Shown here: one piece after another, positions 9,488-30,866 of the stretch | Layout of the letters: each line of letters begins with the position of its first letter | Position numbering within the stretch: the stretch's first letter is position 1 | From: a virus | Taxonomy: Duplodnaviria; Caudoviricetes | Strand: one strand, 5' to 3' | Length of the DNA stretch: 64,000 bases | Virus record (IMG/VR): IMGVR_UViG_3300031555_001586 | Location: 1-64,000 of that record | Made by a program: the position numbers and the translations under genes | The notes under the pieces: model-generated | The model's database searches: none | The model's input: only the letters and a program-made list of their open reading frames with translations | Told to the model about the DNA's origin: nothing

Positions 9488-9672
9488 AATTATACTCCTT
9501 TTATGTGTTGTTGTTTTACTTTCTATAGATATTATAGCATAAATTTACTTATTTGTCAAGTAGTTTATAAAATATTTTTAGTATAAAATACCAATTTAAA
9601 TCAATGGTATATTATACGCAGCAGTATATTATACCCAATCAGTCAAATAAAAGAGGATGGAAAATTCCATCC

Positions 9673-10875
9673 TCAATTATGCAATTTACATCTTGTCACC
9701 TCTGTCTGTTTAGTACCCTTGTACTCTATATGATTTTTAATAGAGAAATCAATTGTCTTCATTTCTCTCAATTCATCCTCGCTATACCAGTTAGAAGATT
9801 TCCAAGTAAGAATATTGCCACCTTCAAGAATAATCCTATATAAATAAGTATAGCCAAACTGTGTTTCCCAACCGCTCAGTATACGAATATCGTATACATT
9901 TAAGTTTTTATATCTCTTACCAACTTCACCAAAATACTCAGACTTTTCATCGACTTTCTTTTGTTCTTCCTTTTTGATTTCCTTCTGAATATATTTATTA
10001 TAACCTTCGGGAAGATAACAGAGAAATCCAATATTCTGCCATGCAACAAAACCATCATTCAAAAGGACATGTACATTGTGCATAAACTCATTGTCTGCTT
10101 CTAAATTTAGATAATACTGAATGATTTTCTTAACCCTATCTTCTGTATCTTTCTTATGAAAATCAGATTCATCAAATTCGACTGCAAAGAATTTGTTTGC
10201 CTTCAATGTTTCATTTACAAATTCAATTCTTTTGCTCATTTTCTGATTGCCATCAATCATCTCATTCAACAAAGTTTTTGTAGGCAAATCAGAATTGCAA
10301 TTGAAATAACCCATCTTGTCAATAATTTCTGTGGCATATCCAATTACATAATCAACTGGGAAATAGAATTTTCCACCACCACAAACGTTGCCGTCGTACT
10401 CTTCAAGTTCTGTAATGCCATCAATAAAGGATGCGACATACTCAGCATTAAGACCATGCGTATAGAGATTCAGACAGCTACTACCGACTTGCTTAAACTC
10501 ATTTGTTTTTACATTACGAATGATATAAAGTTCGTTTCTCTGTCTTTTGCTATTACAGTGTTCACAGATATTTTCCGTATATAAGAATCTTGTAGGGATA
10601 TCAATTTCGGTATTGATTCTCCGAATGACGTTACCAGTGTTATGGATTTCAAGAACCGCTACACATTCGTAATCATCAATCTTTGCCGTTCCTTCCACTT
10701 CTACGACTATGAATTTATAGAAATGCTTGTAACCATCCTCGTCTTTTACTTCTTTAATTTCTTCTCCTACAACTTTAAAAGTAAAAGGATTGCCATGCTT
10801 CTTACACTTCTTACCGATTCTATTAAGTTTCTTTTCTACATCTGCGAAAAAGTCCTCATAAATTCTATACTGCAT
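9673..10875 (-). CDS. conserved phage protein of unknown function
   Basis: ATG at 10875 after SD AAGGAGG; CEHC motif and KQVGSSCL. Confidence 0.7.
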   Translation of the reverse strand: MQYRIYEDFFADVEKKLNRIGKKCKKHGNPFTFKVVGEEIKEVKDEDGYKHFYKFIVVEVEGTAKIDDYECVAVLEIHNTGNVIRRINTEIDIPTRFLYTENICEHCNSKRQRNELYIIRNVKTNEFKQVGSSCLNLYTHGLNAEYVASFIDGITELEEYDGNVCGGGKFYFPVDYVIGYATEIIDKMGYFNCNSDLPTKTLLNEMIDGNQKMSKRIEFVNETLKANKFFAVEFDESDFHKKDTEDRVKKIIQYYLNLEADNEFMHNVHVLLNDGFVAWQNIGFLCYLPEGYNKYIQKEIKKEEQKKVDEKSEYFGEVGKRYKNLNVYDIRILSGWETQFGYTYLYRIILEGGNILTWKSSNWYSEDELREMKTIDFSIKNHIEYKGTKQTEVTRCKLHN

Positions 10876-11030
10876 ATTCCGCACCTCCTTGATTTGTATT
10901 TTTATTATAGCACAATAATCATCGTTTGTCAAGTAGTTTTCTGAAAATTTATTTAGATATTTTTTGTATATTATACCCTTGTATATTATACCTATGGTAT
11001 ATAAAATAAAGGGCTGATAAAATCAACCCT

Positions 11031-11333
11031 TTACCAAAGATTTTCTCCAAGTACAGAGAAGTTACAACCCTTGCTATTACCAGTAATGGGAATCCACCTA
11101 GAACCACCACCAGTTACCCAAAGTACCATGTAAGACTCTCTATAGTCTTCTACGTCCTTAAACTTCATTACCTTATACTTTACACCGCTCCAACCGCATT
11201 TAGCGCTCCTGATAAGCTCAGACATTGTTTCAATATAATTCTTCATATCAATCTGACTTTCGGTATATTCGGCTTCTGGAACTTCTACATAACCTTTATC
11301 TTCAAGTACCCAACCATAAGTATAATTTTTCAT
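11031..11333 (-). CDS. hypothetical phage protein
   Basis: 100-aa ORF with SD AAGGAG, followed by a terminator. Confidence 0.7.
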   Translation of the reverse strand: MKNYTYGWVLEDKGYVEVPEAEYTESQIDMKNYIETMSELIRSAKCGWSGVKYKVMKFKDVEDYRESYMVLWVTGGGSRWIPITGNSKGCNFSVLGENLW

Positions 11334-11358
11334 ATTGTACTCCTTTTAGCCAATAATC

Positions 11359-12117
11359 TTAACAATTTTCAATAAAAAAGAAATTGTTATCCCTTAAATA
11401 ATCTGGTGTATCTAATTCTCCATTTCTAATTTTTCTAATAATATTTCTATCTATTTTTTCTTCATCGCAAAATTTTCTTATACTATCGTATGTTTTACCG
11501 TTGTATGAAACTTTTATATTTTTAGGCTTTTGATAGTCGTAATCGCACATTTCTTTATCGATATACCTAAGTCCTTTTTGATACCATTCTAATGGCATTT
11601 TGCTTTTACCAGACAACCAATCTTTTATGCTCGAATATGGTATGTTAAAATATTCCGCACAATCTTTAGCGCAATCAAAAATAATTCCATCACAAATAGT
11701 CTTTCTTGCAAAATGAGATTTTCCGCCAATATTCGCATTTCTAAAATTATTTCTATTTTCTTCTGTTGGAATCCAACCTCTATTGACACCGCCACCAATA
11801 TTCAAATTGTAACCATTTGAATTTTCTGCTCCAATATACGAATTATATTTTTGTATATAAAATACTTCTCTTTCGTCTAGTTGCTTAACATCACATTCTT
11901 CTATTAATTCATATGAAAAATTTTCTACGCCATACTTTCTAAATGCCTTATATAAAACACTATTATTATTTTCAATTTCCCATATATGCTTTTTTAATCT
12001 ACGATAAACATCAACACTCTGCCCTATATAAACTTTGCCATTAATTTTATTCTCTATCTTATATATGCCACTTACTTTTTTTGTAAATGGAATTAAATTA
12101 CTAATCTTAATTTCCAT
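11359..12117 (-). CDS. GIY-YIG homing endonuclease
   Basis: SGIYKIENKINGKVYIGQS..RR...H and NGYN motifs. Confidence 0.9.
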   Translation of the reverse strand: MEIKISNLIPFTKKVSGIYKIENKINGKVYIGQSVDVYRRLKKHIWEIENNNSVLYKAFRKYGVENFSYELIEECDVKQLDEREVFYIQKYNSYIGAENSNGYNLNIGGGVNRGWIPTEENRNNFRNANIGGKSHFARKTICDGIIFDCAKDCAEYFNIPYSSIKDWLSGKSKMPLEWYQKGLRYIDKEMCDYDYQKPKNIKVSYNGKTYDSIRKFCDEEKIDRNIIRKIRNGELDTPDYLRDNNFFFIENC

Positions 12118-12481
12118 TTATAATATCAACCTCCTCAAAAGTTAAAGTTTTAACAATCTTCATGCGTTGCGCAAGAACCCAAGCACCTCCTTGCGCAAGC
12201 GGACGGTCATAACTTTCCCAATCCTCAACTTCACATTCGACCCATACACGCCGTTCACCGCTTGCAAGTTCTTTCTTTAAGTGTGGAGCAATAGGTTGAA
12301 AACAACAATGCCATCCAGTTCTTACCGCAAAGCCCTTTGTAGGGTGACACTCAGCTTCCATCCATTCGCCAATTGGAGTAGATACAGTTTTGTTAATAAA
12401 CAGCGGATATAACTTGCCATCCTTCTTAATTCTCAACAGCTTATATGCCTTCATGTTATTTTCCTCCTTAACATGCTTCAC
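12107..12481 (-). CDS. conserved phage hypothetical protein
   Basis: Probable start at MKAYKLLR after SD GAGGAGG; GFAVRTGWH motif. Confidence 0.65.
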   Translation of the reverse strand: MKHVKEENNMKAYKLLRIKKDGKLYPLFINKTVSTPIGEWMEAECHPTKGFAVRTGWHCCFQPIAPHLKKELASGERRVWVECEVEDWESYDRPLAQGGAWVLAQRMKIVKTLTFEEVDIINGN

Positions 12482-12806
12482 TAATTACTTGCACCTGTGA
12501 CTTACCAAAGAATCTTGCTTTGTAGATTGCTCCATCACCCTTGCTACCCCAAATCAAATCACAACCAAATAATGCCTTAGAACCGTGAATTACTTCATAA
12601 CCAAGCTTCTTCCAGTTGTACCAAGTATTTGTTTCTTCTGTAATACCAGCTTTTTCTTTGGCTTCTTCGATACGCTTTTTGTTAATATCAATTGCTTTAG
12701 CTGATAACCAAGAACGATGCAAACACTCAGAGAATTTAATTGTTTTTAGCTTTCTGAACAGCTCCCAAGCGTTCTTCATAATCATTCTTAAATCGTACTT
12801 CTTCAT
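12468..12806 (-). CDS. hypothetical phage protein
   Basis: 112-aa basic ORF with SD GGAGG. Confidence 0.65.
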   Translation of the reverse strand: MKKYDLRMIMKNAWELFRKLKTIKFSECLHRSWLSAKAIDINKKRIEEAKEKAGITEETNTWYNWKKLGYEVIHGSKALFGCDLIWGSKGDGAIYKARFFGKSQVQVISEAC

Positions 12807-12843
12807 GCTTGCATCCTCCTTAATTATATAAGTTTATTAGTTA

Positions 12844-13704
12844 TTAAGAAACAGTAGGTACTTCCATGCCAAGAATATATTTCATTGCCTTTTCAGCCTT
12901 GCCACTTGCAGATACAATAAAACGATTGTCGTTTCTCAAAACCTTTAACCAACTCTGGATATATGCAGCAGAATTTTTAAAAGTTTTAGAAGTTTCAATT
13001 CCAACATGATTCATAAGGAACGCCGAACCAATTTCGGCAATCAATTCTTCCTTGCTGTAATCCTCAGAACCAAAACCAGCAAGTTTAACACCGCTATCCA
13101 ATCTGCCAAGTCTGTCTCTGTGCCCTGTGCTGTGAATCATTTCATGGAACAGCGTACTATAAAACTCAGCGATATCCTTATACTGTTCCTTGCAAGGGAC
13201 TTGAATGTAATCCATCATAGGACTATAGAAAGCATCATTGCTTACCACTTCTTTGATAAGAATGTTTTCTCTTTCCTTGTAATTGTTCTTAATCTTCTCT
13301 GCTTCTTCGATAGGCTCATGGTTAATAGGTTTAATATCTTTAGGCTCGATACCATCTACCTGTGACACATGAAATACATTAATATATTTCAAAAGAGGAA
13401 TAGATTTCTTTTCCACTTTGCCATTCTTAACTTCTTCTGTCTGAAAAATCTTCCAGAACACTACGATTTCAGATTTTTCACCCTTGCGAACCTTACCACC
13501 CAAATCGCTCCACTGTTTGTAAGTAGCGTATTCACCTTCATGCTTCAAAAGCATCTGATTCAAAAGGGAATATGGCTTCTTGCTTACTCTATTGTAAGCG
13601 CCACTTGCTACACCGCTCCAAGGCTTAGACCAAGGAATGACACCATTTTCCAACTGCTCAATAATTCTGTTTGTTACCTCTTCATAGATATTAAACTTTG
13701 CCAT
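12844..13704 (-). CDS. ardC: ArdC-family ssDNA-binding antirestriction protein (DUF1738 plus zincin-like domain)
   Basis: IPWSKPW, YATYKQW..LGGKVRKGEK, FHEMIHSTGH and YSKEELIAEIGSAFL. Confidence 0.9.
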   Translation of the reverse strand: MAKFNIYEEVTNRIIEQLENGVIPWSKPWSGVASGAYNRVSKKPYSLLNQMLLKHEGEYATYKQWSDLGGKVRKGEKSEIVVFWKIFQTEEVKNGKVEKKSIPLLKYINVFHVSQVDGIEPKDIKPINHEPIEEAEKIKNNYKERENILIKEVVSNDAFYSPMMDYIQVPCKEQYKDIAEFYSTLFHEMIHSTGHRDRLGRLDSGVKLAGFGSEDYSKEELIAEIGSAFLMNHVGIETSKTFKNSAAYIQSWLKVLRNDNRFIVSASGKAEKAMKYILGMEVPTVS

Positions 13705-13940
13705 GATGCTTACTTCCTTTCTTTGATGTGTCGTGTTGTTTATTTCTTTTCTTTACACCCATATTATAGCATATGTTTCATGGTTTGTCAAGTAGTTTAT
13801 TGAAAATTCTTAAAATATTTTTCAGAAGTATAACTTTGTATATTATACCATTTGTATAATATACCGATTTTGATATTCTGTATAAAATACCACTGAAAAA
13901 AATAAAAAGCGGAGAAGATTAAATCTTCTCCGCTCGATTA

Positions 13941-14297
13941 TTAGTCTGCAAGATACATCATAAACTTATCCAAATCTTCATATTCCAGACTATCGAGTTC
14001 GCCGTTTTTATTCATACGACACACGATACAACGACTATAAATTTTGATATTGCTTTCTGGAATAACGGCAAGGGGCTTTACCTTGTGAGACAATTCTTCC
14101 TCTTGATACTTATTGTAGACAAGAACGATATTATTTGTATTAGGAATCTTAATAATCGTTCTATCAATCGGTTCAGTTACACCGATTGAATCATCCAGAT
14201 AACCGAGAATAAAATGGTCAAGTTTTTCCAGATTGATTTCTGTCTTTGTTTTATTGCCATAAAATGCCTGTGCAATAACTGTAATCTTCTTATTCAT
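13941..14297 (-). CDS. hypothetical protein (possibly DUF3846-like)
   Basis: 118-aa ORF; weak resemblance only. Confidence 0.55.
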   Translation of the reverse strand: MNKKITVIAQAFYGNKTKTEINLEKLDHFILGYLDDSIGVTEPIDRTIIKIPNTNNIVLVYNKYQEEELSHKVKPLAVIPESNIKIYSRCIVCRMNKNGELDSLEYEDLDKFMMYLAD

Positions 14298-14314
14298 ATT
14301 TATAATCCCCTTTA

Positions 14315-15016
14315 TCAGCTATTTACCTTTTCATTCTTTTTGTCACTAGGCTTTACTTCCTTGCAAACCTGATAAAATCCATTGACTTCATCATCTTCAA
14401 TAATCAGCGCTGTTAACGCTCCACCAAAGACGCAACCAGTATCAATATCAATGTTATAAGCAAAAGTATATACTGGCTTGCTGATATCATTCAGCGTCAA
14501 TGTTGGAGTATGCCCAAAGACAACTGTCTTATGATATTCTTTTGTAGTATAAATAAACGGCTCTCTTATCCACAACAAAGTCTCTTTGTCTTGTTCTTCG
14601 ATAGGCTTATAAACGTCTACACCAGCATGAACATAAATAAAATGTTCATCTTCATGATATAAAGGAAGAGTTCTAATCCACATCATATCGTCTTCAAGTT
14701 GCTTATCAAAACCATGGTAAGAATCTATTGTGTTATAACCACCATTAAAAAGCCAATTTCTTTCTCCGTTCCTATAATAATCCAGCATCATATCTTCATG
14801 ATTACCCATCAGTGCAATTACATTATCATTATTTTCCTGCAAGCTTCTAACAAGTTCAATTACTTTTCGACTATCCTCACCTCTATCAATATAGTCTCCA
14901 AGAAAAACTAGTTTATCTGTATTCTTATTGTATTCACCGCTTGTTTCCAATTCAAAAAGCAATTCTTTTAGTTCATTGTAACAACCATGGATATCGCTAA
15001 TCACTATTGTTTTCAT
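14315..15016 (-). CDS. PPP-family Ser/Thr protein phosphatase (metallophosphoesterase)
   Basis: DIHG, GDYIDRG, GNHE, HAG, GHTP and IDTGCVFGG motifs. Confidence 0.9.
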   Translation of the reverse strand: MKTIVISDIHGCYNELKELLFELETSGEYNKNTDKLVFLGDYIDRGEDSRKVIELVRSLQENNDNVIALMGNHEDMMLDYYRNGERNWLFNGGYNTIDSYHGFDKQLEDDMMWIRTLPLYHEDEHFIYVHAGVDVYKPIEEQDKETLLWIREPFIYTTKEYHKTVVFGHTPTLTLNDISKPVYTFAYNIDIDTGCVFGGALTALIIEDDEVNGFYQVCKEVKPSDKKNEKVNS

Positions 15017-15214
15017 TTTAATCCACTCTCTTTCAGATTTTATTCATTGGCTATACCTCCTATTCAATTTTAAATTCCGCTACGGTTTATCAAGATAAAT
15101 TCTGTACATCATAATAACCACTTCCATATATTTAATATTTACTATATTTAAATTATACTATAACTTTATTAGTTTGTCAAGTATCTTTTTTGAATTTTCT
15201 GTAAATTTATTGTG

Positions 15215-17595
15215 TCAATTATAGATAAAATTATTTCTGCCAATGTATTCTCCACATTCATAGTCTTCATCACAATAGCCAGAATACCATGTAAGTTCTC
15301 CGTGCTTATCTGTAAGTCCAATTAGTTTACACATGCAAGTAGCTTCATTATTACCACCAACAATAACTTCCATATTGTTCGCATATCTACCAATCATTTT
15401 CCATTTAGGCATAATAATTTCCTCCATATAAAATTGCGTTTTTATTAGTTGTCAATGTATGTGATTACAAATGTACACAATCCAAAAGACATTCCAGCAA
15501 TTTGAATATTAACAATTTTTCCGTCATGTTCTGCAAGAAATTTGTTCAACTCTCTATCATCATCATGGTCTGCAATAATAATTTTTACTCTAATTCCAGC
15601 AACTCCATAAATATTTTCCATATAATTTTACCTCTTATAATAATCTTCTTTATGCCTTGTAAATCTCTCTGTAAGCTTCTGCAAGGTTATCTGCTGTGCA
15701 ATAGAATTTTCCATCCAGATAAACGTTGTAATGGTCACGGTCATGTACAATCTTGTAAGACATATTTACCTCCGCTCAACAAGACATTTCATACAGAATT
15801 TCAACGGTATCAATATCATTCCAATCAAATTCCGTCTCATCCATTTCCTGCATAATTTCCAGTGCTTCTTCCTCGCTGTCTGCCATAATAGTTGCATAAC
15901 CACATTTCGTTGCCATAACTCTATATCTTGTCATATTGTACCTCCATGTTAAAATCATGCTTTTATGTTAATCAATTCTAACTTCTTTGTTATTAATAAT
16001 CACCATGTCTGTATATGCCCAGTGATATTCATAATTATAATCTTCAAATCCATCAGTTGACTTCATAACACCAATCATCTTCTTTGCTTTTTCTTCCGTT
16101 GTTGCATATCCAACAGTATAATCGTCCCCATCATAATCAATAAGTTTTACACAAAAAATTTTCATAACAAATCCTCCATCTTAAAATCTCACTTTTAATC
16201 GTTACTTTTCGGAACAAGTTCTAAATCACTTACTTTTACATTGTATTCATAGTTCATATAACGCAAAGTTGTAAACTTGAATCTATTCCAACTATCAAAA
16301 ACTAGAAACTCCGTTCCCTCTGGAATATCTGGAGAATCCCATCTCTTTTGTCTTTGTTTATTTCGGTCACTTAGTTCTCTTTTAGTTCTGATATACACCA
16401 TTTCAGCAACCTCCACTTAAAACCACACTTTTATGTGCTACATATAATATTTAGATGCAAAATTCCAAGGTGTCATATTTCTATAATCAACTGCTTGTTC
16501 TGTTTCTGCATCGTCACAATCCATTGTTTCTATTTCTTGTTCTGTAAATAATTTATTGTAATTATCCGATTCTTGATTACAACAAACATATTCATCACTC
16601 AATGCGTGATTCAAAGTACACCAATAACATTCTTTGCATTTCATAATTTGTTTACCTCATAAAATTATTCTTTTATATTCTTATTTATTATTCAATATAA
16701 TCATCGTAAATAAGAATTTCCATATAACCTTTATAGATAATACTATCTTGAATGATAATATCACCATACTTATACTGAAAATCCATAAGCTGTTTTAGAG
16801 TGCCTATCTTAACCATCCAAACTTTTTCCTTGCCGTCTTTATGGGGGATAACTTTCTGCTCAGCTTCTTCGCAAGGCTGAATTTTTCCATCCCATTGGCT
16901 TGCTCTTTTAACAATGTATTTCATAAATCCTCCATTTGAGATTATAAAACCGTTATTTTATACCCAATCATCGTCACTATCGCCATCATAATCAACAGCA
17001 CCAATCTGTCTGCCCTCTGTGATTACAACTGCATTAAAATCTTCCCCATAAAAAGCGTTGATATTGTGTTCGCTAACACTATTAATATTCATTGCAAAAT
17101 CAGTTCCATAATTCTGCATCATACCAATTCTAACTTCCATATCGCCATCAAAGTTTTCCAGTTCTTCAATCAGTTCTCTTACAGTCATGTCAAATCCTCC
17201 ACTTAAAACTGTTCTTTTATTACCATTCAATTTTTGTCAACTTAAACATTGATTCTACTCTAATACCTTTTCCTTGTGATTTAATGTATTCTCTCATTTC
17301 TTTTTCGGTATCAAAGTATAAAACTGTTTTACTCCAAGTACCATCTAACGGATTCCAACCTTCACATTTCAACATATATTCTTTATACATATCCAAATCC
17401 TCCACTTAAAATTAGGTTTTTATTATTTATTTTTCTACATTGTACTCGTCAACTTGTCCAAAGATTTCAATACATACAGTTTCATTGTCTGTAATATACG
17501 GATTAAGATTAACTATGATATATCTATACTCTGCAAACATCAAAGAGATAACAATTAAAAATCTAATGGTTACTCCAATAACTTTCTTTTTCATA
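15215..17595 (-). CDS. cluster of about 12 tiny hypothetical ORFs (37-80 aa), reported as one block
   Basis: Includes 15215-15427, 15776-15958, 15968-16165, 16195-16416, 16438-16644, 16688-16924, 16958-17188 and 17220-17405, each with an SD and separated by TAAAA-N6-TTTTA sites. Confidence 0.7.
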
Positions 17596-17936
17596 TTCAA
17601 ATCCTCCGTTATATAAGTTTATTAGTTATTTATTTTGTTTGCTTCTTTTCTTTACACCCATATTATACCATAACTTTTACTATTTGTCAAGTATCTTTTT
17701 CAAATTTTTCCATTTATTTTTTCTGACTTATTTCCCTTAACTCTTTTGTTCTGCCTGTATTATATCATATAGTTATCTACTTGTCAAGTATTTTTTAAAA
17801 TTATTTTGTATTTTATACCAGTCCATATATTTTGTATATTATACCCGTTCATGTTTTCGTATAATATACTGCTGCGTATAATATACAATGTGTATATAAG
17901 AAAAGCTAGGATTTCTCCTAGCTATTTCTTTATTTG

Positions 17937-19241: not shown

Positions 19242-19499
19242 AGTAAATTCTCCTTTGTTGTTTTATTTGTTGTTTTATAACCTTATTTGTTGTTCTGTTT
19301 TATATCTTCTTTATGGTTATATTATATACCATATTTTATTATTTGTCAAGTAGTTTTCTAAATATTTTTCATTTATTTTCATTGTACTTAGATTTGTTTT
19401 CTTTTGTATATTATACGCAGCTACTATGTTTTGTATATTATACTAATCCGTATAATATACCGCTGGTATAAAAAATAAAGGATGGAGAAATCTCCATCC

Positions 19500-20028: not shown

Positions 20029-20149
20029 AATATGTCAAGTAGTTTTTATAATATTTTCTTCTTTGTATAATATACCGTTTTAATTTAATTGTATAATATA
20101 CCACTGGTATAAAAAAGAGGAATTGACTTTTGCCAATTCCTCAATATAT

Positions 20150-20467: not shown

Positions 20468-20675
20468 AGTGATTACTTCCTTTCAGTATTATGTTGTTGT
20501 CCTTATTGACACTGATATTATATCATATAAAAACATAGTTGTCAAGTACCTTTTATGAATTTTCTGTAAACAAATTATAGATATGATTTTGTATATTATA
20601 CCGAGCGGTAATTATATTACTGTATATTATACGAAAACGTGCCGTCTGGTATTTTGGTATATTATACGAACGTAT

Positions 20676-21167: not shown

Positions 21168-21365
21168 CTCATTTGTATTTTGTTTGTTCTGTTCTTTATG
21201 GTTCTATTATAACATGTATTTTCTATTTGTCAAGTAGTTATTTATATAATTTTGATTTTATTTCCATGAAGTATATTATACCAAATTGTATATTATACTG
21301 GCCTGTATATTATACGCAGCTATATAAAATAAAGGTGGAGAATTTTCTCCACCTCTTTATATTTA

Positions 21366-21755: not shown

Positions 21756-21960
21756 TTTTAATCTTCCTTTCTTTGTGTGTTGTATTGCTTACAAGTACAT
21801 TATATCATATTTTAGTCATTTGTCAAGTAGTTATTTTAATATTCTTTCAAGATTCTTCCTATTATTTGTATAATATACTACTGGTATATTGTTTGTATAA
21901 TATACTTGATAGTATAAAAAAGACAGTGGATATTTTTCCACTGTCTTGAATAATGTTAGT

Positions 21961-22137: not shown

Positions 22138-22809
22138 GTTTTATACCTCATTAAAATCGTTTTTATGTATTATGCGACTTCAATAATAATTTTTCCGTTG
22201 TTCGTCCATACTCCAATTACATCAACATCAAAGAACGGGCACATAACTTTTTTCCCTTCAAACATTGTTCTATGGTTATTATAGTCTGCAATTCTTATAA
22301 CTTCCCCACCATCAATAACAGATAGAAACATAGATAAATTTATTTTCATAAAATTTCCTCCATAAAATGTTCTTTTATGTGTTAGTTTACTTTCCATTTT
22401 TCAATATATGGCTCAGTAGTTTTCCAATATTTATCATTGTTCAATTTTTCCAATTCTTCTTTTGCTTTCTTTTCTGATGAAAATATTTTATGTATTCCTT
22501 CATCACCATAACAACCAGCTATAATTACATATACATATTTCATATATTTTTACCTCTTGAAATTGCTTTTTAATTTATTGTCGTGTTGTTTTTTATCTGT
22601 GGATATTATATCACAATAATATTAGTTTGTCAAGTAGTTTTTATAAAATTCTTGAAATTTTCCACAGGTATTTTCCGTATAATATACCTGTGGTATGTAG
22701 ATTTGTATAATACGTTTTCCGTATAATATACGAATACGTCTTGCGTATATTATACCGTAAGATATAAAAGTAAGACGGTGAATTTCTCCACCGTCTATAA
22801 CTTTAATTG

Positions 22810-23202: not shown

Positions 23203-23395
23203 TTTTATGTATTGTCAAGTAGTTTTAAAAAATTTTCTGAAAAATGTTTTGGAATTTTCCGTTGCTGTGAGTGTATATTATACTACGCATAGCAGTTTGT
23301 ATATTATACTAATTTTCTTCTGGCGTATATTATACCAAATAATAAAAAAAGAAAAGGTGACGGGATTTTCCGCCACCTTAATTAGAATTGTTCTT

Positions 23396-23678: not shown

Positions 23679-23888
23679 TCAAACGAGTGCTGTGCAGTTT
23701 CCTGTTTCCTCGCAGTAGTGATAATATATAACTTTCATATCATCATAGATGATATCGGTCATTGCACCATAATCATCAGTTAATGTTACGGCTTTTCCGT
23801 CTTGTCCTTTTGTGATGATTCTGAAATTCTTCGGTGCTTTTGGCAGGGTCATAAACAAATTCCAAACCGTCATGATTATTTCTCCCAT
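23679..23888 (-). CDS. hypothetical phage protein
   Basis: 69-aa ORF next to site 23893-23908. Confidence 0.55.
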   Translation of the reverse strand: MGEIIMTVWNLFMTLPKAPKNFRIITKGQDGKAVTLTDDYGAMTDIIYDDMKVIYYHYCEETGNCTALV

Positions 23889-23923
23889 ATCATAAAATTA
23901 TCTTTTTAACTTGTATAATGTTA

Positions 23924-24205: not shown

Positions 24206-24482
24206 GGTGATTTTCCTTTCTTTGGTGTTTGTGTGTTGTTTTGTTTTGTTGTAGTTATTATAACATAATTTTATTTGTTTGTCAAGTAGTTTATGGAATA
24301 TTTATGGAATATTTTTGTTATTTTGATAATTATTTTTAGAAGTGGTGTGGAGGTGGTATGGGGTGTGTGGTGTGGTATGTGTATATTATACGGTTATTTA
24401 GTAGTTTGATATATGTATAATATACTATTGATATAAAAATAAAAAAGAGTGGAACTTGCTCCACTCTTTATATATTTAATTG

Positions 24483-24632
24483 TTATAGATTGTTACCGAA
24501 AAGTGTTTCGTCAATTAGACGGTCAACAAGTTCGCAAATTTCCCATTCTTCCATATTGCTGATATTTTTTTCGTAGTGTTCGCAAATATCCTTTGCTTGT
24601 TCATAGGTAAGAATAAAGTTAATGTTTTCCAT
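24483..24632 (-). CDS. small acidic protein (49 aa)
   Basis: MENINFILTYEQAKDICEHY..., SD AAGGAG, own promoter and terminator. Confidence 0.6.
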   Translation of the reverse strand: MENINFILTYEQAKDICEHYEKNISNMEEWEICELVDRLIDETLFGNNL

Positions 24633-25133
24633 GTTGTTTCTCCTTTATAATTTTGGTAATTTTGGTTTTGTTATATACCTTTTTGGTATGGCTGTATTAT
24701 ATCATGTTTGGAATATTTTGTCAAGTGGTATTTTTTATTTTTTTTGGTGTGTTGTAGATTATAAAATTATTATCGAGAAACGATAAATTTATAGAATTTA
24801 TAGATTGTATTTTTGTGTGTATCTATTTTTAATCAGAATCACAATAAAACTTTTTCGTACCGTTACTCAAAACACTATCAACAGTTTTTCCACAACCCAA
24901 TATAAGTTTCCAAATAACCCCATACAAGTTTTCCAAAAACCGCTCATCGGGTTTTCAAAACCCTATCATCAGTTATTTAATAACCTAACTTAATTTGTAT
25001 AATATACACCAGTATCCACTGATAATGTGTATAACTCGAAACTTTTATAACTCATAATTTTCATCACTCGTTCGTCCCACAATCCGTATATTATACCAAA
25101 TCTTCCAGCTCAAATATTCACTCAAATATTCAC

Positions 25134-25481
25134 CAAACAAATGTTCGTATATTTTGTATATTATACCTCTGGTATATTATACCATTTCCTTCCATTTTGA
25201 ATGTTAAAAAATCAGGTTCTTTGACATTCGCCAGTATTTTGTATATTATACCAATTTTCCAAACGTATGTTCATATTGATAAATACAAACAAATGTTCGC
25301 TTTGTTAAACAAAAAAATAAAAATGTTTCACGTGAAACATTTTCTTCCAAAAGTTACAAATATTTACATTTAGTATATTATACCAATTTGTATATTATAC
25401 AATGATATTCCATATGAGTCATAAAAAATATCACTCGTTGGTTCCTGTATATTATACCGCTGGTATATAAACATATGTTCG
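25134..25481. promoter_or_regulatory. cluster of 4 Firmicutes LexA (SOS) box-like sites
   Basis: xAAAC-N4-GTTCG/A at 25134, 25260, 25286 and 25468. Confidence 0.55.
25324..25339. promoter_or_regulatory. parS: parS (Spo0J/ParB binding site)
   Basis: Exact TGTTTCACGTGAAACA consensus inside a 22-bp perfect palindrome (25321-25342). Confidence 0.9.
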
Positions 25482-25734
25482 TATATTATACCGCTCTTTT
25501 ATTTTGGTATATTATACCGTTGGTATATCTTTTGGTATAATATACGATTCCGTATATTATACCTGCGGTATACTCCATTTTATATTTGGTATATTATACC
25601 GCTTTATTTTCTGGCATATTATACCGCTTTAGTTTCTGGTATATTATACCGCTTTAGTTGTGTCTGAAAACACAAAAAAAGAGGATGGAATTTCTTCCAC
25701 CCTCTAATACCTATAACATTATTTGTTTATCTTT

Positions 25735-26043
25735 TTAAGATTGTCTAATCAAATAAATAAACAGAACAATAAAACCAAGCCAACCAAAGCACACCAGAAG
25801 CGATATAAACGGCATTTTAATTAGTAACCAAGCTTCCGCAAGCGTGGCGGATACCTCAGCCCATACAGCCACCAGCTCGCCAATAGAGACAACAAAAAGA
25901 ATCGTTGCACATGCTGTAATTGTTATTAGAATATACCAAAACAATTTAGCCATGAATTTTTCCAGCGCTGTCTTGTTTATCTTTATATCAAATACTCTTT
26001 CTTTATTAGTTTTATTGACTTCCTTTTTTACTGTCTTTTCCAT
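25735..26043 (-). CDS. membrane protein with two TM helices
   Basis: Two long hydrophobic segments; SD AAGGAG. Confidence 0.7.
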   Translation of the reverse strand: MEKTVKKEVNKTNKERVFDIKINKTALEKFMAKLFWYILITITACATILFVVSIGELVAVWAEVSATLAEAWLLIKMPFISLLVCFGWLGFIVLFIYLIRQS

Positions 26044-26062
26044 AGTATTTTCTCCTTTTTAA

Positions 26063-26188
26063 TTAACAAATAACAGCAAGTGAAAAGAAAATTGCAACGG
26101 CAGAGGCCACATAAAATATGCTTATAATAACCATAACAAACTCTTTTATATAATTACGGCGATAATCTTTAGGAACTTCGTAATACAT
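26063..26188 (-). CDS. small single-TM protein (41 aa)
   Basis: MYYEVPKDYRRNYIKEFVMVIISIFYVASAVAIFFSLAVIC; SD AAGGAG. Confidence 0.55.
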   Translation of the reverse strand: MYYEVPKDYRRNYIKEFVMVIISIFYVASAVAIFFSLAVIC

Positions 26189-26554
26189 AATCAATTCTCC
26201 TTTTGTTTTCTGTTGTTGTTTGTTGTTTGATTACAAGAGGATTATAACATAAATTTACTTATTTGTCAAGTATTTTTTATAAAATTCTGATAATTTTTCC
26301 GATAATTTTCCGAAGACATCTTGTATATTATACCAAAGGTATATCTTTATATATTATACCAAAAGTATAAACTGTTTAATTACGTATATTATACCGTTGG
26401 TATATTCCATTTGTTGTTCTGGTATATTATACCGATTGTATAATATACCGACGGATACCAGAAAATATATTTGGTATATTATACGAAATTACGCCACACA
26501 AAAAACAAAAGAAAAAGAAGGTGGATTTCTCCACCTTCCATATAACTTTATTTG

Positions 26555-26809
26555 TTATTCCTCTTCCTCCTCTTCCTCTTCTCTGTACATCAGTTCTTCA
26601 AAACTTCCATAGCCCAGCCAATCAGCAATAGTATCGTCCTCAAACCAAAAGAAATCATTAATTTCAACGTCCTCCATTCCATCAGGATAAATTTCTTCCA
26701 ACATGTTTTCAATAGTGTCAATTTCATCTTCGGTCAAATACTTTACAGTATCTTTTGCACCGCTCCAAAAATCAAAGTTTACAAGTCTTTCTTCCGTGTA
26801 GATTTTCAT
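26555..26809 (-). CDS. highly acidic conserved phage protein
   Basis: ATG at 26809 after SD AAGGAGG; NFDFWSGAKD, INDFFWFE and a poly-Glu tail. Confidence 0.7.
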   Translation of the reverse strand: MKIYTEERLVNFDFWSGAKDTVKYLTEDEIDTIENMLEEIYPDGMEDVEINDFFWFEDDTIADWLGYGSFEELMYREEEEEEEE

Positions 26810-27363
26810 GGTATTTTCCTCCTTGTTGTTTTTATCTGTTGTTGTGTTCTGTTCTTCTTTACACCTATATAATAGCATATATTTTCTAAGTTGTCAAGTA
26901 GTTTTTATTTATTTTCCAAGAAATTTTCCAGTATTTTTATACATTTGTATATTATACGAATCATAAAATTTATCACTCGTTCGTTACTGGCCTCGTATAT
27001 TATACCAGTGGTATATAATATAAATTTTCCGAGCGCAGCTTGCCATACATCCGTATATTATACCAAATATTTTCCGCATGATGTTTCTATAATATTCCGT
27101 ATAATATACCAATAATACATATATAATAATATTCCGTATAATATACGATTATATATTTATTAATTATATATGTTATATACTGTTAGTATAATATACCGAT
27201 TGGTATATTATACCTCTGGTATAAATAATAAATAAATCTTCCAAACAACTCGTATATTATACCAAATTTCTATGCTGTTTATACATCGGTATAATATACG
27301 AATTTTCCAAGAAAAAATTCTAAAAGAAAAACAGTGGAGATAAATTCTCCACTGTCTGTTTAT

Positions 27364-27603
27364 TTAAAGTCCAGCCATTGCCAGAATAGCGTCCTCATAA
27401 TAGCAAGCTCTTTCCGTCACTGCAACCTTTTTCATTCTAGGATAAAAATTTCCTCTCAACCAAAACAACTGCAATTCTTCTGTAGTGCTATAATTACCGC
27501 TCGCATAGTTTTTCCAAGCAAGGTCAAAAGCTTGTTTTGCTCTCTTCATTTTTCCAGCCTTAATATTGTCATTACAAGCGTTGATATAATCCATGGTAGA
27601 CAT
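27364..27603 (-). CDS. hypothetical phage protein
   Basis: 79-aa ORF with SD GGAGG. Confidence 0.65.
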   Translation of the reverse strand: MSTMDYINACNDNIKAGKMKRAKQAFDLAWKNYASGNYSTTEELQLFWLRGNFYPRMKKVAVTERACYYEDAILAMAGL

Positions 27604-27618
27604 AAATTTTCCTCCGTA

Positions 27619-27795
27619 TTATTTCGCTAAAAACATGCTTTTGTCGATTTTTTCCAATGCAATCATCAAACCTGTAATTACTCCATTGTAATGGTCTTCG
27701 TGCATAGCTCCGCAATTCTCCAACATTTCTTCTTCGAACTCAATCTGCAATTTAATTGCAAGTTTCAAAACGTCCGCATATTCTTTAATACCCAT
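27619..27795 (-). CDS. small hypothetical protein
   Basis: MGIKEYADVLKLAIKLQ..., SD GGAGG. Confidence 0.55.
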   Translation of the reverse strand: MGIKEYADVLKLAIKLQIEFEEEMLENCGAMHEDHYNGVITGLMIALEKIDKSMFLAK

Positions 27796-28155
27796 AAAAT
27801 TTCCTCCATGTTGTGTTGTTCTGTTGTTGTTTACACACTTATAATAGCATACTTTTTATCATTTGTCAAGTAGTAAATTAAAAATTCCAACAAAAAATTC
27901 CACAAAAATCCATTCAGTATTTTGTATATTATACCGTTTCCCATTTAGTTTTTATCTGTTGTTCCTCCGTATAATATACCAAGGTATAATATACTAAATT
28001 TTCTTCCTGCAAAACTCCGTATATTATACGTTTGCGTATAATATACCAAGATATAAAACTCCGTATAATATACCAAACTTTCCATATTTAAAATCCAAAA
28101 CAAAAAAAGAAAAAGAGGGAAGTTTTCTTCCCTCTAATCTTTATATCTTTATCTG

Positions 28156-28461
28156 TTAGATATCGTAATAAACTTCTTCCTTGTAATACCCTTCCATTTC
28201 AACCGCTACTGTGAATCTATCCTGTACAGAGAAAGAATATCCAAAGTCCTTGTTGTATTTTCTGCTTGCTTCCGTTGCTACATTGTAATAAGCGTCTACC
28301 GCTTTTTCCGCATCATAAACGCCCTTCTTTGCTTTCTTCTTAAGGCTGTTAATAACCGCTGTGGTCATCCCTCTGTAAAGTTCTCCGTCATTGGTAGCAT
28401 ACAAGAAAAGCTCTCTGGATTCAGTGGTTTCCTTATAAATCATGTTTTTTGTACGTTTCAT
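28156..28461 (-). CDS. conserved phage hypothetical protein
   Basis: ATG at 28461 after SD GGAGG; RELFLYATNDGELY and KGVYDAEKA. Confidence 0.7.
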   Translation of the reverse strand: MKRTKNMIYKETTESRELFLYATNDGELYRGMTTAVINSLKKKAKKGVYDAEKAVDAYYNVATEASRKYNKDFGYSFSVQDRFTVAVEMEGYYKEEVYYDI

Positions 28462-29116
28462 GGTGTATCCCTCCATAAGTTGTTGTTGTTTGGTGTTGTT
28501 CTTTATCTGTCTATAATATATCATATAAAAAGTGGCTTGTCAAGTAGTAAATTAAAAATTCCAAACAATTTTTTCCATGTTGAATGGCTTTGTATATTAT
28601 ACCAACTGCCAGCATACAAAGCCCGTATATTATACCGCTCTGGTATAATATACGGATAACGTAGCAGCATCACTATTTGGTATATTATACCACGGGTATA
28701 ATATACCTCTGGTATACCTGAAACGGTATAATATACGGCTTGCGTATATTATACCGAACACCAAGAAAAGCGTATATTATACCAAGCTGTAAACAGCGCC
28801 GTATAATATACCAAAGACAGTACAAAACAAAACCGTATATTATACCAATTGGTATAGCTCTGGACTCTTTCAGCCTCTCAACAATATCCCAAACAGTATT
28901 TTATACCGCTCTCAGGCTCTCAGTGGCTCTCTCTGCCATTTTAATAGTCTCAGAGGGTTAACACAAGTGAAGAAAAAACGACGCTCTCAGAGGCTCACAG
29001 AGGCCCTCAGAACGTCGGTATAATATACGGAAATGATAGAAGTATAGACGGCGGAAATCAGTGGTATAATATACGATTGCACACAATTAAAATAGGCATA
29101 AAAAAAGAGGGGCATT

Positions 29117-29437
29117 TTAGCCCCTCTTTTTCATAGTTTCTATAGTTTCTTTAATCTCACAATCTACAATTGCTTTTTCGTCGTAGTTTAACCAATAGTA
29201 ATAGCCCTTAACAGGAGCGCATAAAAAATCACCTTTTTCGTTGCTAACTCCAAGACCAACCGCATAATGAGCTGGGAGATTAGTAAGCGCCCATAAATAA
29301 GCGGTGTCAATGTCAGGCGCATCAATTTCGATTTTGATACTATCGACAATAGCGAAGTCGGGGTATTTACGAGCGGTGTCCCATGCAAAATAAGTAGGGA
29401 CATCAGAAAAGCGATTAGCACGAATAAAATGTTTCAT
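29117..29437 (-). CDS. hypothetical phage protein
   Basis: 106-aa ORF with SD GAGGA. Confidence 0.65.
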   Translation of the reverse strand: MKHFIRANRFSDVPTYFAWDTARKYPDFAIVDSIKIEIDAPDIDTAYLWALTNLPAHYAVGLGVSNEKGDFLCAPVKGYYYWLNYDEKAIVDCEIKETIETMKKRG

Positions 29438-29496
29438 AGTAACTTTCCTCTCTTTAATAAAAGGGGCTGATTCCTCAGCCCCTATAACTTTATCAC

Positions 29497-30198
29497 TTAT
29501 AAAGCATAGTCGATAAATACGGCCTTGTAATATCCCTTGTTGTAATCAAAGATTACGCCGGAGTTACCGCCGTTATGCATCGCATCACGCCAGCCCTGTT
29601 TTTTAGACATTCTAGCAAGTTTTTGAAGTCTTTCGTCGGCATCTTCACCGACATATCCATGTTCACGGTTCAAACGTTCGGCCTTGCGACATGCGCTATA
29701 TGCATCGGATACATAAACGGCCTTTTGTGCAATAATTACCACATTGTTTTGCATTGTCTCAGAAGTTGCGGTAACCTTATCAGATTTGCTAGTAAAATAC
29801 TTAAGAATCGGACAAAGTAAATCGGCGTATTCAGTTTCTGCGAACTCTACCCAACAATTGATTTCGTCAACCAACTGATTACCAGTGCATTTGGCGTGTT
29901 CACCATGGACATTAGGTACATAACCGCCAGTTTTATGACGCTTAATAACGATATACTTAAAAGCGTCACCCTCATGATTAACTAGGTGGCAAGTCTTAGT
30001 TGCGCCATGCTCACAGCTCCAATCATCACGGCTATACAGCTCGTTAATACGCCACTGGTCGTAAACCATGCCACGATTAGAGTTGGTATTGCAAGCAATC
30101 AACCATTCGATTAACGCACGATGGTTGTGCTTCTTTGCCTTTGCCATAGCGGACTGAATAGCTTTAGTTTCAGGGTTCTTTCTAGTTGTCATTGTCAT
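29497..30198 (-). CDS. protein kinase-like enzyme (minimal ePK-like fold)
   Basis: HGATKTC (P-loop), IVIKR (beta3 Lys), VDEINCW (alphaC Glu), DAMHNGGN (catalytic loop) and IDY (DFG-like). Confidence 0.65.
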   Translation of the reverse strand: MTMTTRKNPETKAIQSAMAKAKKHNHRALIEWLIACNTNSNRGMVYDQWRINELYSRDDWSCEHGATKTCHLVNHEGDAFKYIVIKRHKTGGYVPNVHGEHAKCTGNQLVDEINCWVEFAETEYADLLCPILKYFTSKSDKVTATSETMQNNVVIIAQKAVYVSDAYSACRKAERLNREHGYVGEDADERLQKLARMSKKQGWRDAMHNGGNSGVIFDYNKGYYKAVFIDYAL

Positions 30199-30704
30199 GA
30201 TAATGCATCTCCTTTTGTTGTTGCGGTATGTTATACCGTTGTTGTTGTCTACATTATAAGCTAGTCAAAAGCTACTTGTCAACTGATATGTTGCGAGTAC
30301 AAAACGCCCACCGTTCTTGTGCAATACTGCTATATCCCTTGGAGCGAGAAACTGCCTATGACTTAGGGCGTTTAGACGGTATAGCCCGCCCTAATTAGGG
30401 CCAGACCGCTTGACTGATTGGATTTTGCTTTGCTTTGGATGTCTCAATTATAGCTCATATTTTACACTTTTCAAGATGGGAAATTGCACAAAAAAAGAGC
30501 TTTAAAAAGCCCGTTTTGACTATGGTTTTTGTATAAAATACACAAACGAAAATATGGGCTTCGGTATATTATACAAAACAGATACACTGTTTATAGCTCT
30601 GTTTTGTGCACATTGTATAATATACAAAAGGATATAGCATATTGCACAAATAATATAGTTTTGTTTTGGCTATTTTGACGATAGACAAGGGGCGGTATAA
30701 TATA

Positions 30705-30866
30705 CGAACGAACGTTCGATAAAATAGTGTGACATAATATCGAACGAATGTTCTAAAAAATAGGGTGGTATAATATACAAAAATTTGTTCGAAAATATGG
30801 GCTGGTATGGATATAGAACAAATGTTCAATAATAGGGGTGGGGGGTGGTTTACAAACAAATGTTTG
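30705..30866. promoter_or_regulatory. cluster of Firmicutes LexA (SOS) boxes
   Basis: Perfect CGAAC-GAAC-GTTCG at 30705-30718; variants at 30741, 30815 and 30853. Confidence 0.65.

Follow-up and report, generated by a model that had tools for sequence, protein, structure and literature searches.

Phased arrays of a strict palindrome in the early region of an SPbeta-like phage: probable control sites of the early transcription units

The early intergenic DNA of an SPbeta-like phage carries 80 copies of the palindrome GTATAWTATAC. This word is strict, confined and under selection; its copies are helically phased and set at particular places in the early transcription units, and the word changes between phage lineages. 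It is almost certain that a single DNA-binding protein docks at these copies, and this putative protein probably switches the early units together. The window analyzed here is a stretch of 64,000 nt from the record of a partial contig of 89,745 bp, and the whole contig was scanned for the word.

The palindrome and its arrays

A sequence-only reading of the window had described about 80 copies of GTATA(A/T)TATAC confined to early intergenic DNA. The motif count gave exactly 80 matches in the window, whereas shuffles gave 0.10 on average and never more than 1. All were located in non-coding spacers of a region of about 21 kb, from the first match at 9607 to the end of the last at 30778, and 0/80 lay inside a credible ORF. 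The reported absence of copies at 31-64 kb was also confirmed, with no match in the remaining 68 kb of the contig. One-mismatch variants numbered only 10 in the contig scan, against 80 exact copies, and 6 of these 10 were GTAT-N3-ATAC forms within the array region. The core is a perfect 11-bp palindrome, which weak symmetric flanks extend to about 15 bp (consensus T-Y-G-GTATAWTATAC-N-A-A). Read on the plus strand, 49 copies have a central T and 31 a central A; as this base alone differs, the two orientations noted before hold for the centre of the palindrome only. TATAAT is present in all 80 copies, as had been seen, and about one-fifth of them read as an extended -10 element, TGnTATAAT.

The sites fall into 18 clusters (Table 1). 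Clusters 1-12 (9.6-24.4 kb) hold 2-3 copies apiece, in agreement with the first count for 9.6-24 kb, and clusters 13-18 (25.0-30.8 kb) hold 14, 5, 9, 6, 12 and 4. The previous figure of 6-15 per spacer at 25-29 kb was thus roughly correct but slightly high at its low end, given the spacer with 5, and the four further copies reported at 30.56-30.78 kb make up cluster 18. Site density climbs toward the junction of the genome arms, here at about 31 kb, in all three full genomes. That position had been taken for a putative genome end; it is instead internal to the contig, being the point from which the early arm runs leftward and the Rep-like/YonO/late arm rightward, and is syntenic with the SPbeta yonP/yonR junction. 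The YonO homologue marks the phage as SPbeta-like.

Table 1. Coordinates of site clusters, associated boxes and genes in the window
Feature	Position	Strand	Sites	Context
Cluster 1	9607..9634		2	degenerate GTATAAAATAC at 9581; heads operon of g21, tandem-RHH gene and recombinase gene; nearest site centre 27 bp from -35 box at 9559
Cluster 2	10966..10991		2	upstream of promoter at 10932 (400-aa ORF)
Cluster 3	13838..13864		2	degenerate copy at 13880; upstream of ArdC-like gene; sites kept in orthologous spacer of L332
Cluster 4	17834..17886		3	
Cluster 5	19406..19460		3	
Cluster 6	20065..20101		2	
Cluster 7	20591..20667		3	
Cluster 8	21271..21315		3	17-bp steps
Cluster 9	21868..21905		2	
Cluster 10	22677..22755		3	
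Cluster 11	23273..23335		3	26-bp steps
Cluster 12	24381..24425		2	
Cluster 13	24997..25649		14	gene-free spacer of ~800 bp
Cluster 14	26323..26484		5	
Cluster 15	26947..27299		9	
Cluster 16	27924..28073		6	
Cluster 17	28592..29074		12	
Cluster 18	30564..30778		4	interleaved with three perfect GAAC-N4-GTTC boxes
AAAC-N4-GTTC LexA-like boxes	25135, 25261, 25287, 25469			cluster 13 spacer
Perfect GAAC-N4-GTTC boxes	30706, 30742, 30816			cluster 18
Perfect host-type parS	25324-25339			inside largest array (cluster 13)
DUF262 protein	4846-5916			
Single-chain tandem ribbon-helix-helix (RHH) protein (g19)	8205..8600	-		in operon headed by cluster 1
RepE-like two-winged-helix protein (g78)	31910..32809	+		array-dense junction
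YonO-type single-subunit RNA polymerase	33128..36043	+		start of rightward late arm

The placement first described was confirmed: the copies follow a terminator and precede the next -35 box. Terminator-like hairpins numbered 33, compared with 6.6 +/- 2.6 in shuffles, and the first site stands 14-18 nt past the preceding terminator stem in 12 of 17 clusters; in relatives the mode of this distance is 16-19 nt. The minus strand carries 16 perfect and 4 near-perfect TTGACA-16/18-TATAAT promoters, the perfect ones matching at 12/12 positions and most also having TG. At 15 consensus sigmaA promoters, 26-62 bp separate the -35 box from the centre of the nearest site upstream, and no site overlaps a -35 or -10 box. 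Of the 22 strong promoters, six lack their own array, and two arrays stand without a strong promoter beside them. Neighboring sites are helically phased at about n+0.6 turns: their spacings cluster at 15-18, 24-31, 33-38, 44-51 and 57-61 bp (Rayleigh R=0.53 for a 10.5-bp period, n=65). Helical phasing relative to the -35 box was not significant (R=0.31, n=17). Three -35 boxes have a CodY-like box with one mismatch on them or no more than about 13 nt away.

All seven LexA-type boxes of the contig (3 perfect and 4 near-perfect) are inside arrays and at most 50 bp from a site, only 5% of the contig being that close. Two of them directly abut a site, as seen for the site at 30695-30705 and the box at 30706-30717. 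The parS sequence in cluster 13 differs from GTATAWTATAC and is single, and parS is missing in five relatives having arrays or the same layout. The presence of a perfect parS within the largest array, the density gradient and the high mosaicism of early genes among relatives would suit centromere-like, DNA-entry or condensation sites, or recombination joints for the swapping of gene cassettes. Such roles are distinctly unlikely, however, as the sites go with individual transcription units, the five relatives lack parS, and recombination alone would not hold 11 bases exact and phased while the spacers diverge. In addition, no member of the ParA or ParB families was detected by Pfam and PHROGs scans of most early-arm ORFs, YonO and four ORFs just downstream of it; the DUF262 protein is related to ParB-family CTPases in its N-terminal domain only. 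The proposal of a centromere-like or coating array, one of three made in the sequence-only reading, thus receives little support.

Relatives and candidate binding proteins

Conservation in relatives, suggested beforehand as a check, was observed. GTATAWTATAC occurs in about 22 diverged metagenomic phage contigs with 509 exact copies and with the same phasing (R=0.49, n=416). In orthologous spacers of L332, a 147-kb phage, and of L232, the sites are kept, whereas the terminator stems are different ones and the remaining spacer sequence has diverged; the centre base flips and the copy number goes from 2 to 4. Phages of the same layout also use other words. G001 carries 68 copies of the core word AAGTTTTTAAA, mostly in a directional A/T-tract unit of about 28 bp, and G002 carries 44 copies of TCGTTAACAA (48 under the degenerate TYGTTAACRA); the word of L085 is CGTTTTTAAAAACG, and L337 has NTTTTTAAAAATT units. 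None of these four words contains TATAAT. Another SPbeta-like phage with like architecture has the word GGTAAAATTTACC. Three protein searches returned about 800-1000 relatives apiece, and SPbeta-like phages form a large, abundant group in gut and rumen metagenomes.

The words of sister phages bear on a positive role of the copies, as activator sites, upstream flexible DNA or pseudo -10 elements gathering sigmaA RNA polymerase. TATAAT in every copy, with TGnTATAAT in about one-fifth, agrees with such a role. The upstream distance from the -35 box, 26-62 bp or more, also suits activators and UP-like DNA, and the early promoters of SP82 are enhanced by curved DNA placed upstream. Yet the promoters are already at consensus, the sites are not phased to the -35 box, the sister words are free of any -10 likeness, and the word is stricter than expected of structural DNA, all of which make a positive role unlikely. 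The earlier proposal that the copies are -10 decoys for sigmaA likewise fails as a general explanation, because the -10 likeness is not kept across the architecture (G001, G002, L085 and L337); for GTATAWTATAC itself it keeps some likelihood, as about one-fifth of the copies read as an extended -10.

Two conserved DNA-binding proteins encoded near the arrays, the tandem-RHH protein and g78, were considered as binders, and neither co-varies with the word. A phage with a 76%-identical RHH protein carries the word ATTTTTAAAAAT, and the reading strands of the RHH are identical in a phage using a different word. The g78 model (pLDDT 89.5) matches RepE and related iteron-binding initiators with a probability of 0.98-0.99, but its closest fetched homologues (77-80% identical) stand beside other words or no arrays, and for L332, which has the same word, no Rep-like homologue was among the 120 best matches. 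A homologue of the SPbeta repressor MrpR/SroF (PF22822/PF22823) was found neither in the 89.7-kb partial contig nor in the 19 kb downstream of the L332 RHH module; relatives G001, G004, G005 and G011 encode MrpR-family proteins.

The match of g78 to RepE raises the idea that the copies are titration or handcuffing sites for this initiator, forming a copy-number control array like incA of P1. Arrays are densest beside the g78 gene in three phages, and RepE-type initiators bind inverted repeats as dimers. Against this stands the distribution of g78 homologues described above. Iterons, moreover, are direct repeats of 17-22 bp clustered at the origin, whereas the present palindromes go with the terminators of some 15 transcription units, and we consider the idea very unlikely.

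The word may also be the operator of a host regulator, the 80 copies either making the early units obey that host sensor or soaking up the regulator as a sponge. Genuine host-type sites (the LexA boxes and the perfect parS) share the array spacers, the one-mismatch CodY-like boxes lie near three -35 boxes, and the Rep-like, RHH and L332 comparisons show a word class that does not follow the phage backbone, as expected if the word tracks the host. A host-encoded binder would fit most of the facts cited for operator arrays. However, we know of no Bacillota regulator box with the sequence GTATAWTATAC, and, in what is a weak test, four of five Clostridia genomes with a tandem pair showed no enrichment of the word over its reversed control (3-9 versus 2-8 copies). 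The fifth had 8 against 2. The genes beside the Clostridia tandem pairs are mutually unrelated. Control by a host regulator is a live alternative, though rather unlikely.

Proposed role as operator arrays

The explanation that we favor is that of operator arrays for one sequence-specific, probably dimeric protein silencing the early units together, a view that we hold about evenly balanced between right and wrong. Cooperative operators had been the last of the three earlier proposals. They fit best in view of the strict word, its phasing, its conservation against diverging flanks, the other words of sister phages, the LexA boxes and the precedent of MrpR and its SPBRE box; on the other side, the sites never overlap the core promoter and no repressor was identified.

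On this view one sequence-specific protein, most likely a dimer, would bind the palindrome of about 15 bp, which is set out in phased arrays in front of almost all early transcription units. Bound protein could form a higher-order complex on each array, which would stop RNA polymerase reading through the preceding terminator and would also silence the downstream promoter. Since the sites are upstream of core promoters, repression would require looping, spreading or contact with RNA polymerase. About 20 very strong early promoters might in this way be switched together, in lysogeny or in early shut-off, and the LexA boxes in the two largest control regions may tie release to DNA damage. Protein binding, the repressive effect and the SOS link are what we infer from this arrangement.

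More broadly, the arrays could represent a modular, interchangeable control layer of the early region in gut SPbeta-like phages, although in its full form we hold this only tentatively and as improbable. One phage or host protein would coat the phased array welded to each terminator, and the array would be insulator, roadblock and promoter silencer simultaneously. LexA boxes fused base-to-base would let the SOS repressor compete or cooperate with the binder, and lineages would swap word and binder as a cassette, giving immunity classes independent of the backbone.

The way in which SPbeta-like phages silence about 20 consensus-strength early promoters is known only for Bacillus SPbeta and phi3T, and the arrays would be a different, much denser solution. 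Should the binder come from the phage, immunity groups would follow the word classes; should it come from the host, the phage would be capturing or sensing a host regulator to an unusual extent. The precise anatomy (terminator-locked, phased and word-switching) makes experiments easy to design.

Comparison with known systems

Arrays of short repeats bound by RHH regulators are known as the omega heptads of inc18 plasmids and for AvtR (PDB 4hv0) of an archaeal virus. In these systems one small protein binds cooperatively to runs of short sites upstream of several promoters; the present phage has such runs too, and its first array heads an operon with a tandem-RHH gene. The omega heptads are contiguous 7-mers, whereas the present sites are at least 16 bp apart at half-integral helical turns, and the RHH reading strands stay the same where the word differs. 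The KorB operator OB of IncP plasmids consists of 12 single 13-bp palindromes, and its binder is a ParB-family CTPase. It resembles the present word as a palindrome at many promoters and at variable distances, its silencing being global and partly long-range; it differs in having single sites instead of arrays, and no ParB-family CTPase was met in the ORFs scanned here. RepE-type iterons share a two-winged-helix initiator beside the repeats, as modeled for g78, but the palindromes form 18 clusters over 21 kb and do not follow the initiator. A ParB/parS centromere has a ParA/ParB pair with clustered cognate sites; the scanned ORFs gave no ParA or ParB family, and the lone parS is of different sequence.

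MrpR, also YopR or SroF, is the integrase-fold master repressor of Bacillus phages SPbeta and phi3T (PMC10516654; bioRxiv 10.1101/2025.11.27.690993). About 10 promoters of SPbeta carry the repeated SPBRE that it binds, among them yonP, yonT and yonX by yonO (PMC10516654); release is LexA-controlled via the antirepressor Sar, and the asymmetric box of 26 bp is recognized by a monomer of SroF (bioRxiv 10.1101/2025.11.27.690993), a poor fit to a perfect palindrome of 11-15 bp. The SPbeta sites are mostly single, compared with 80 here in arrays of 2-14. Their boxes are asymmetric A-tracts of 15-26 bp that overlap or flank the -35 and -10 elements, whereas the present sites are upstream and terminator-locked, and this partial contig gave no MrpR homologue. 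The likeness lies in the phage family and the region, the early arm diverging from yonO, in a word repeated between the genes of many short units driven by sigmaA, and in words that differ from phage to phage; the LexA boxes in the arrays would correspond to the LexA-controlled release of SPbeta.

The stoperators of cluster A mycobacteriophages are bound by repressors of the L5 gp71 type (PMC9283540, PMC6550527). They are asymmetric 13-mers read by a monomer, with an orientation that follows transcription, and are placed singly on both genome arms, whereas the present sites are palindromes in phased arrays on one arm, behind intrinsic terminators. In both cases dozens of identical short sites are spread across the intergenic DNA of a temperate phage and related phages have distinct site classes; stoperator sites and their binder co-evolve, and the action proposed for them includes the blocking of run-on polymerases. 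SPBRE with MrpR/SroF of SPbeta and the mycobacteriophage stoperators are thus the nearest known parallels of the GTATAWTATAC arrays.

Distribution and phasing of the repeated sites

The window covers positions 1-64,000 of a single virus contig of 89,745 bp. Exactly 80 occurrences of the palindromic word GTATAWTATAC were counted in it, where shuffled sequence gives 0.10, and none was found in the remainder of the contig or inside a credible ORF (0 of 80). The sequence-only reading, which had placed about 80 copies exclusively in early intergenic DNA, was thus borne out. One-mismatch variants numbered only 10, six of them being GTAT-N3-ATAC forms in the same region as the copies. The centre base is free (T in 49 and A in 31 copies on the plus strand), and the flanks add a weak extension, T-Y-G-GTATAWTATAC-N-A-A. 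The copies form 18 clusters, of which 12 at 9.6-24.4 kb hold two or three copies each, as had been noticed earlier for the spacers at 9.6-24 kb, and six at 25.0-30.8 kb hold 14, 5, 9, 6, 12 and 4 copies. Nucleotide search of the array region against phage genomes gave no matches, and no RNA family was detected in the arrays by Rfam.

One ORF of the window is homologous to YonO, which is a single-subunit RNA polymerase in Bacillus phage SPbeta. As in SPbeta, yonO and the late genes run in one direction, and the early arm, made up of numerous short units, runs in the opposite one. The early-arm promoters at 11.5-31.4 kb are of the TTGACA-16/18-TATAAT type (perfect in 16 cases and near-perfect in 4, usually extended by TG), and terminator-like hairpins in this arm numbered 33 against 6.6 +/- 2.6 in shuffles. 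The layout of each array was terminator, array and next promoter, in agreement with the earlier placement of the copies between a terminator and the next -35 box; the distance from terminator stem to first copy was 14-18 nt in 12 of 17 clusters. The T-tail of the terminator often holds a TATAC half-site, and TATAC at N4-6 precedes 31 of the 80 full sites. For 15 promoters, the centre of the promoter-proximal copy was located 26-62 bp upstream of the -35 box, and the core elements were never overlapped. Six strong promoters lack an array of their own, and two arrays lack an adjacent strong promoter.

Start-to-start distances between neighbouring copies were banded at 15-18, 24-31, 33-38, 44-51 and 57-61 bp, the gaps between bands being empty. 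For 65 distances, Rayleigh R was 0.53 at a 10.5-bp period (phase about 5.7 bp), and the chance probability was near 1e-8 by exp(-nR^2). Neighbouring palindromes therefore lie on roughly opposite sides of the helix, and their outer half-sites (TATAC ... GTATA) are separated by whole turns. No significant phasing of the copies was detected relative to the -35 box.

Several other elements were observed in this part of the genome. Three early promoters have a one-mismatch CodY box at the -35 box or no more than about 13 nt from it, and GGAAAAT words recur between arrays and promoters in the window and in the relatives G002, G004 and G005. The element AATAAGGTTATA lies just upstream of yonO and other genes, and is present in 28 copies each in the G005 and G001 genomes, in G005 mostly on one strand and immediately preceding ribosome-binding sites. 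A phage-specific promoter (perhaps for YonO) or a processing signal is a candidate function. At the junction of the two arms, a tract of about 600 bp is almost without G and T on the plus strand and carries 10-bp CACAAT-type repeats. SPbeta has similar tracts upstream of yonT and of yonP, and L078 has them at the same junction.

Coordinates of features in the window
Feature	Position	Strand	Remark
Early arm	about 30.3 kb down to 1	-	
g17	6952-7737		tyrosine recombinase-like
g19	8205-8600	-	double ribbon-helix-helix
g75	29497-30198	-	233 aa, first early gene
RepE-like gene region	31549-32809	+	own sigmaA promoter, leader of about 330 nt
g78	31910-32809		RepE-like fold
yonO homologue	33128-36043		971 aa
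Further perfect promoters	9559; 10932		
Arrays without adjacent strong promoter	24997-25649; 30564-30778		
GAAC-N4-GTTC boxes	30706; 30742; 30816		perfect
AAAC-N4-GTTC boxes	25135; 25261; 25287; 25469		
Site-rich, gene-poor stretches	25135-25480; 30706-30827		
Box abutting a site	25469-25491; 30695-30717		0 bases between
Site-box direct repeats	30690-30835		three repeats
parS TGTTTCACGTGAAACA	25324-25339		perfect
CodY box AATTTTCWGAAAATT	10935; 15193; 23231		one mismatch
AATAAGGTTATA	33103; 36046; 38639	+	
AATAAGGTTATA	4766; 8983; 19276	-	
A+C-rich tract	30900-31500		

Arrays in related phages

Metagenome contigs were scanned for three copies of the word within about 100 bp. About 22 phage-like contigs (GC 0.30-0.37) matched, with 509 exact copies vs 80 one-mismatch copies, and the genes that they have in common with the window are only 42-74% identical in protein. 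The 416 neighbour distances in these contigs peaked at 16-17, 24-29, 35-38, 44-48 and 56-58 bp (R=0.49), giving a banded histogram that matches that of the window, and the first copy followed a terminator stem at 13-22 nt in 36 of 56 clusters. Conservation in relatives, suggested earlier as a check, was thus observed for the word, the banding and the terminator distance, and the architecture is not confined to the phage of the window but widespread in metagenomes. A 147-kb ENA contig (L332/L335) carries 11 copies, every one upstream of the module of RHH and recombinase genes; the 28 kb downstream of it are free of the word, the same pattern as in the window. When orthologous spacers upstream of g21 and of ArdC-like genes were aligned, the copies and the -35/-10 boxes were kept, while the centre base flips, the copies vary from two to four, the terminator stems are swapped for different hairpins and the remainder of the spacer has diverged. 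Retention of the copies while the spacers diverge is, as judged from these alignments, the mark left by selection for the 11-mer itself. One further contig, L198, comes from the same phage (100% identity) and was therefore uninformative as an independent comparison. The left ends of our contig and of an identical 47-kb JGI contig, which are independent assemblies, lie no more than 11 bp apart; either a true end of the genome or a repeat that interrupts assembly could account for this.

Arrays of GTATAWTATAC were absent from 80 viral contigs found via YonO, and several of these contigs keep the terminator-array-promoter layout with a different word. In G001 (153 kb; YonO 78% identical), the core word AAGTTTTTAAA is present 68 times, mostly as part of a directional unit, TAAAGTTTTTAAAAATTGNATTTTTTTGG, about 28 bp long, and G002 carries 44 copies of TCGTTAACAA (48 as degenerate TYGTTAACRA) together with a degenerate variant. 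The word is CGTTTTTAAAAACG in L085 and TAGTTTTTAAAAA in L080, and L328, L327 and L337 have ATTTTTAAAAAT-type units; a related word, GGTAAAATTTACC, has been noted in another SPbeta-like phage. G003 showed a single small tandem array, whose word resembles that of G002 and which adjoins the Rep-like gene; no comparable arrays were found in G004, G005, L081 and L336. In G000, G001 and G002, copy density peaks in the 5-10 kb beside the junction and drops with distance. Since the array spacings of G002 had no clear helical phase (R <= 0.24) and the G001 units recur at 47-48 and 57-58 bp, the half-turn rule is shown only for the GTATAWTATAC class. That the layout is conserved while the words change speaks for a specific protein partner and against a property of the DNA alone or of sigmaA. 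The proposal that the copies are -10 decoys for host RNA polymerase fails on this point as a general explanation.

Candidates for the binding protein

The master repressor MrpR (YopR, SroF) of SPbeta has a tyrosine-recombinase fold, and binds a repeated element (SPBRE) at about 10 promoters, including yonP, yonT and yonX beside yonO (PMC10516654). The MrpR family is abundant (1037 matches, many with PF22822 or PF22823), and its genes were found in G001, G004, G005 and G011. No MrpR homologue was found in our partial contig, nor within 19 kb downstream of the RHH module in the same-word contig L332. As an MrpR-like repurposed repressor, g17 was rejected, for it retains R..HxxR..H..Y with all catalytic residues and looks like an enzyme; it is also 50-58% identical across all relatives, whatever their word.

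The g19 product is a single-chain double ribbon-helix-helix protein, as judged from an internal repeat and from a strand-helix-helix pattern present twice in the model (pLDDT 81). Its best fold matches were AvtR, VirC2 and accessory chains of the F-plasmid relaxosome, the last of which we take to be TraY. It was rejected as a class-specific binder: the first reading strand, TALNTKVNKEV, is identical in L328, where the arrays are of ATTTTTAAAAAT, and the second differs just past the strand only (FNKEI vs FSEEI). More than 800 close relatives of g19 were seen in metagenomes, always followed by a 130-aa ORF, a Xer-like recombinase and a DUF262 protein. The modelled fold of g78 is that of the iteron-binding initiator RepE (pLDDT 89.5, probability 0.98-0.99). 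Its similarity to homologues is independent of word class, the closest (77-80%) being located beside other words or no arrays, and it was discarded as the binder. The leader of this gene includes two copies of ACCGTACATTTTGTACGGTGGTC, conserved in L078 and L337.

Comparison of gene presence and absence between array-bearing and array-free relatives gave no candidate. The top gene common to same-word contigs was g75, which is absent from relatives with other words and has no family match; the association is probably positional, and g75 was set aside. By eye, its product is enzyme-like, and its C-terminus (DAMHNGGNSG ... IDY) kinase-like. No other DNA-binding domain was recognisable by Pfam and PHROGs in some 60 early ORFs, most of which are small and acidic. 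As the candidates fail and the contig is partial, the gene for the binder would lie in the part of the genome that the contig lacks or among the orphan ORFs, or the host would supply the protein.

If GTATAWTATAC were the site of a host regulator, word class would track the host. Word class was independent of the phage backbone, an observation that fits either such tracking or a mobile phage cassette. On the other hand, the word was no commoner than the reversed control in four of five Clostridia genomes (8 vs 2 in the fifth), although the host of the phage may lie outside these genomes. Tandem word pairs in bacterial genomes were unrelated elements with heterogeneous neighbour genes, and were rejected as a lead to a host regulator: they proved to be of two kinds. 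One, a long palindrome (gacGTATAATATACtataGTATATTATACgtc) with outer stems varying per copy, was seen on many contigs of several candidate-phyla-radiation genomes (Patescibacteria MAGs L003, L004, L007, L013, L018, L031, L039, L058 and others). The other is a hairpin repeat of Clostridia MAGs (L014, L037, L048, L052, L056, L063, L069 and L071-L073), built from two copies of the word around a 7-nt loop; a stretch of about 60 nt, conserved, GC-rich and structured, comes after the hairpin. Each genome has several such units, which may represent a small RNA or a mobile element.

SOS-type boxes and comparison with SPbeta

Three GAAC-N4-GTTC and four AAAC-N4-GTTC boxes, which have the LexA-box pattern of Bacillota, were found in the contig. 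All seven lie within the two most site-rich, gene-poor stretches and at 11-49 bp from the centre of a site, a proximity shared by only 5.2% of the contig. At two positions the box directly abuts a site. Three direct repeats were also noted, each consisting of a site, or a degenerate site, joined to a box. A host-type parS was detected in the middle of the 14-copy array in the spacer at 25 kb, and none was found at <=2 mismatches in five related phage genomes.

It is close to certain, as far as sequence comparison can tell, that the copies are protein-binding sites under selection. The best-supported mechanism is that the copies together silence or insulate the early units, for which we see roughly an even chance because of the placement, the SOS boxes and the SPbeta precedent, and not because of a demonstrated binder. 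The earlier suggestion of operators silencing promoters is retained to this extent; the repressor search found none, and the strong promoters without an array count against it. The centromere-like array proposed at the same time accounts for fewer facts, and the iteron and recombination readings each explain fewer facts as well.

The SPbeta repeated element, recovered as ...AAATACAAAWAATATGTATA..., is positioned within or beside core promoters. SroF of phage phi3T is a monomer reading a 26-bp A-tract box, and is freed by a LexA-controlled antirepressor (bioRxiv 10.1101/2025.11.27.690993). This monomer-type reading would suit the 28-bp directional A/T-tract unit of G001, but not the short palindrome described here. 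The arrays would belong to the class of dispersed operators, as do SPBRE and stoperators, and differ from these in that the sites are palindromes in arrays, phased by half turns, locked to terminators and in some cases fused with LexA boxes.
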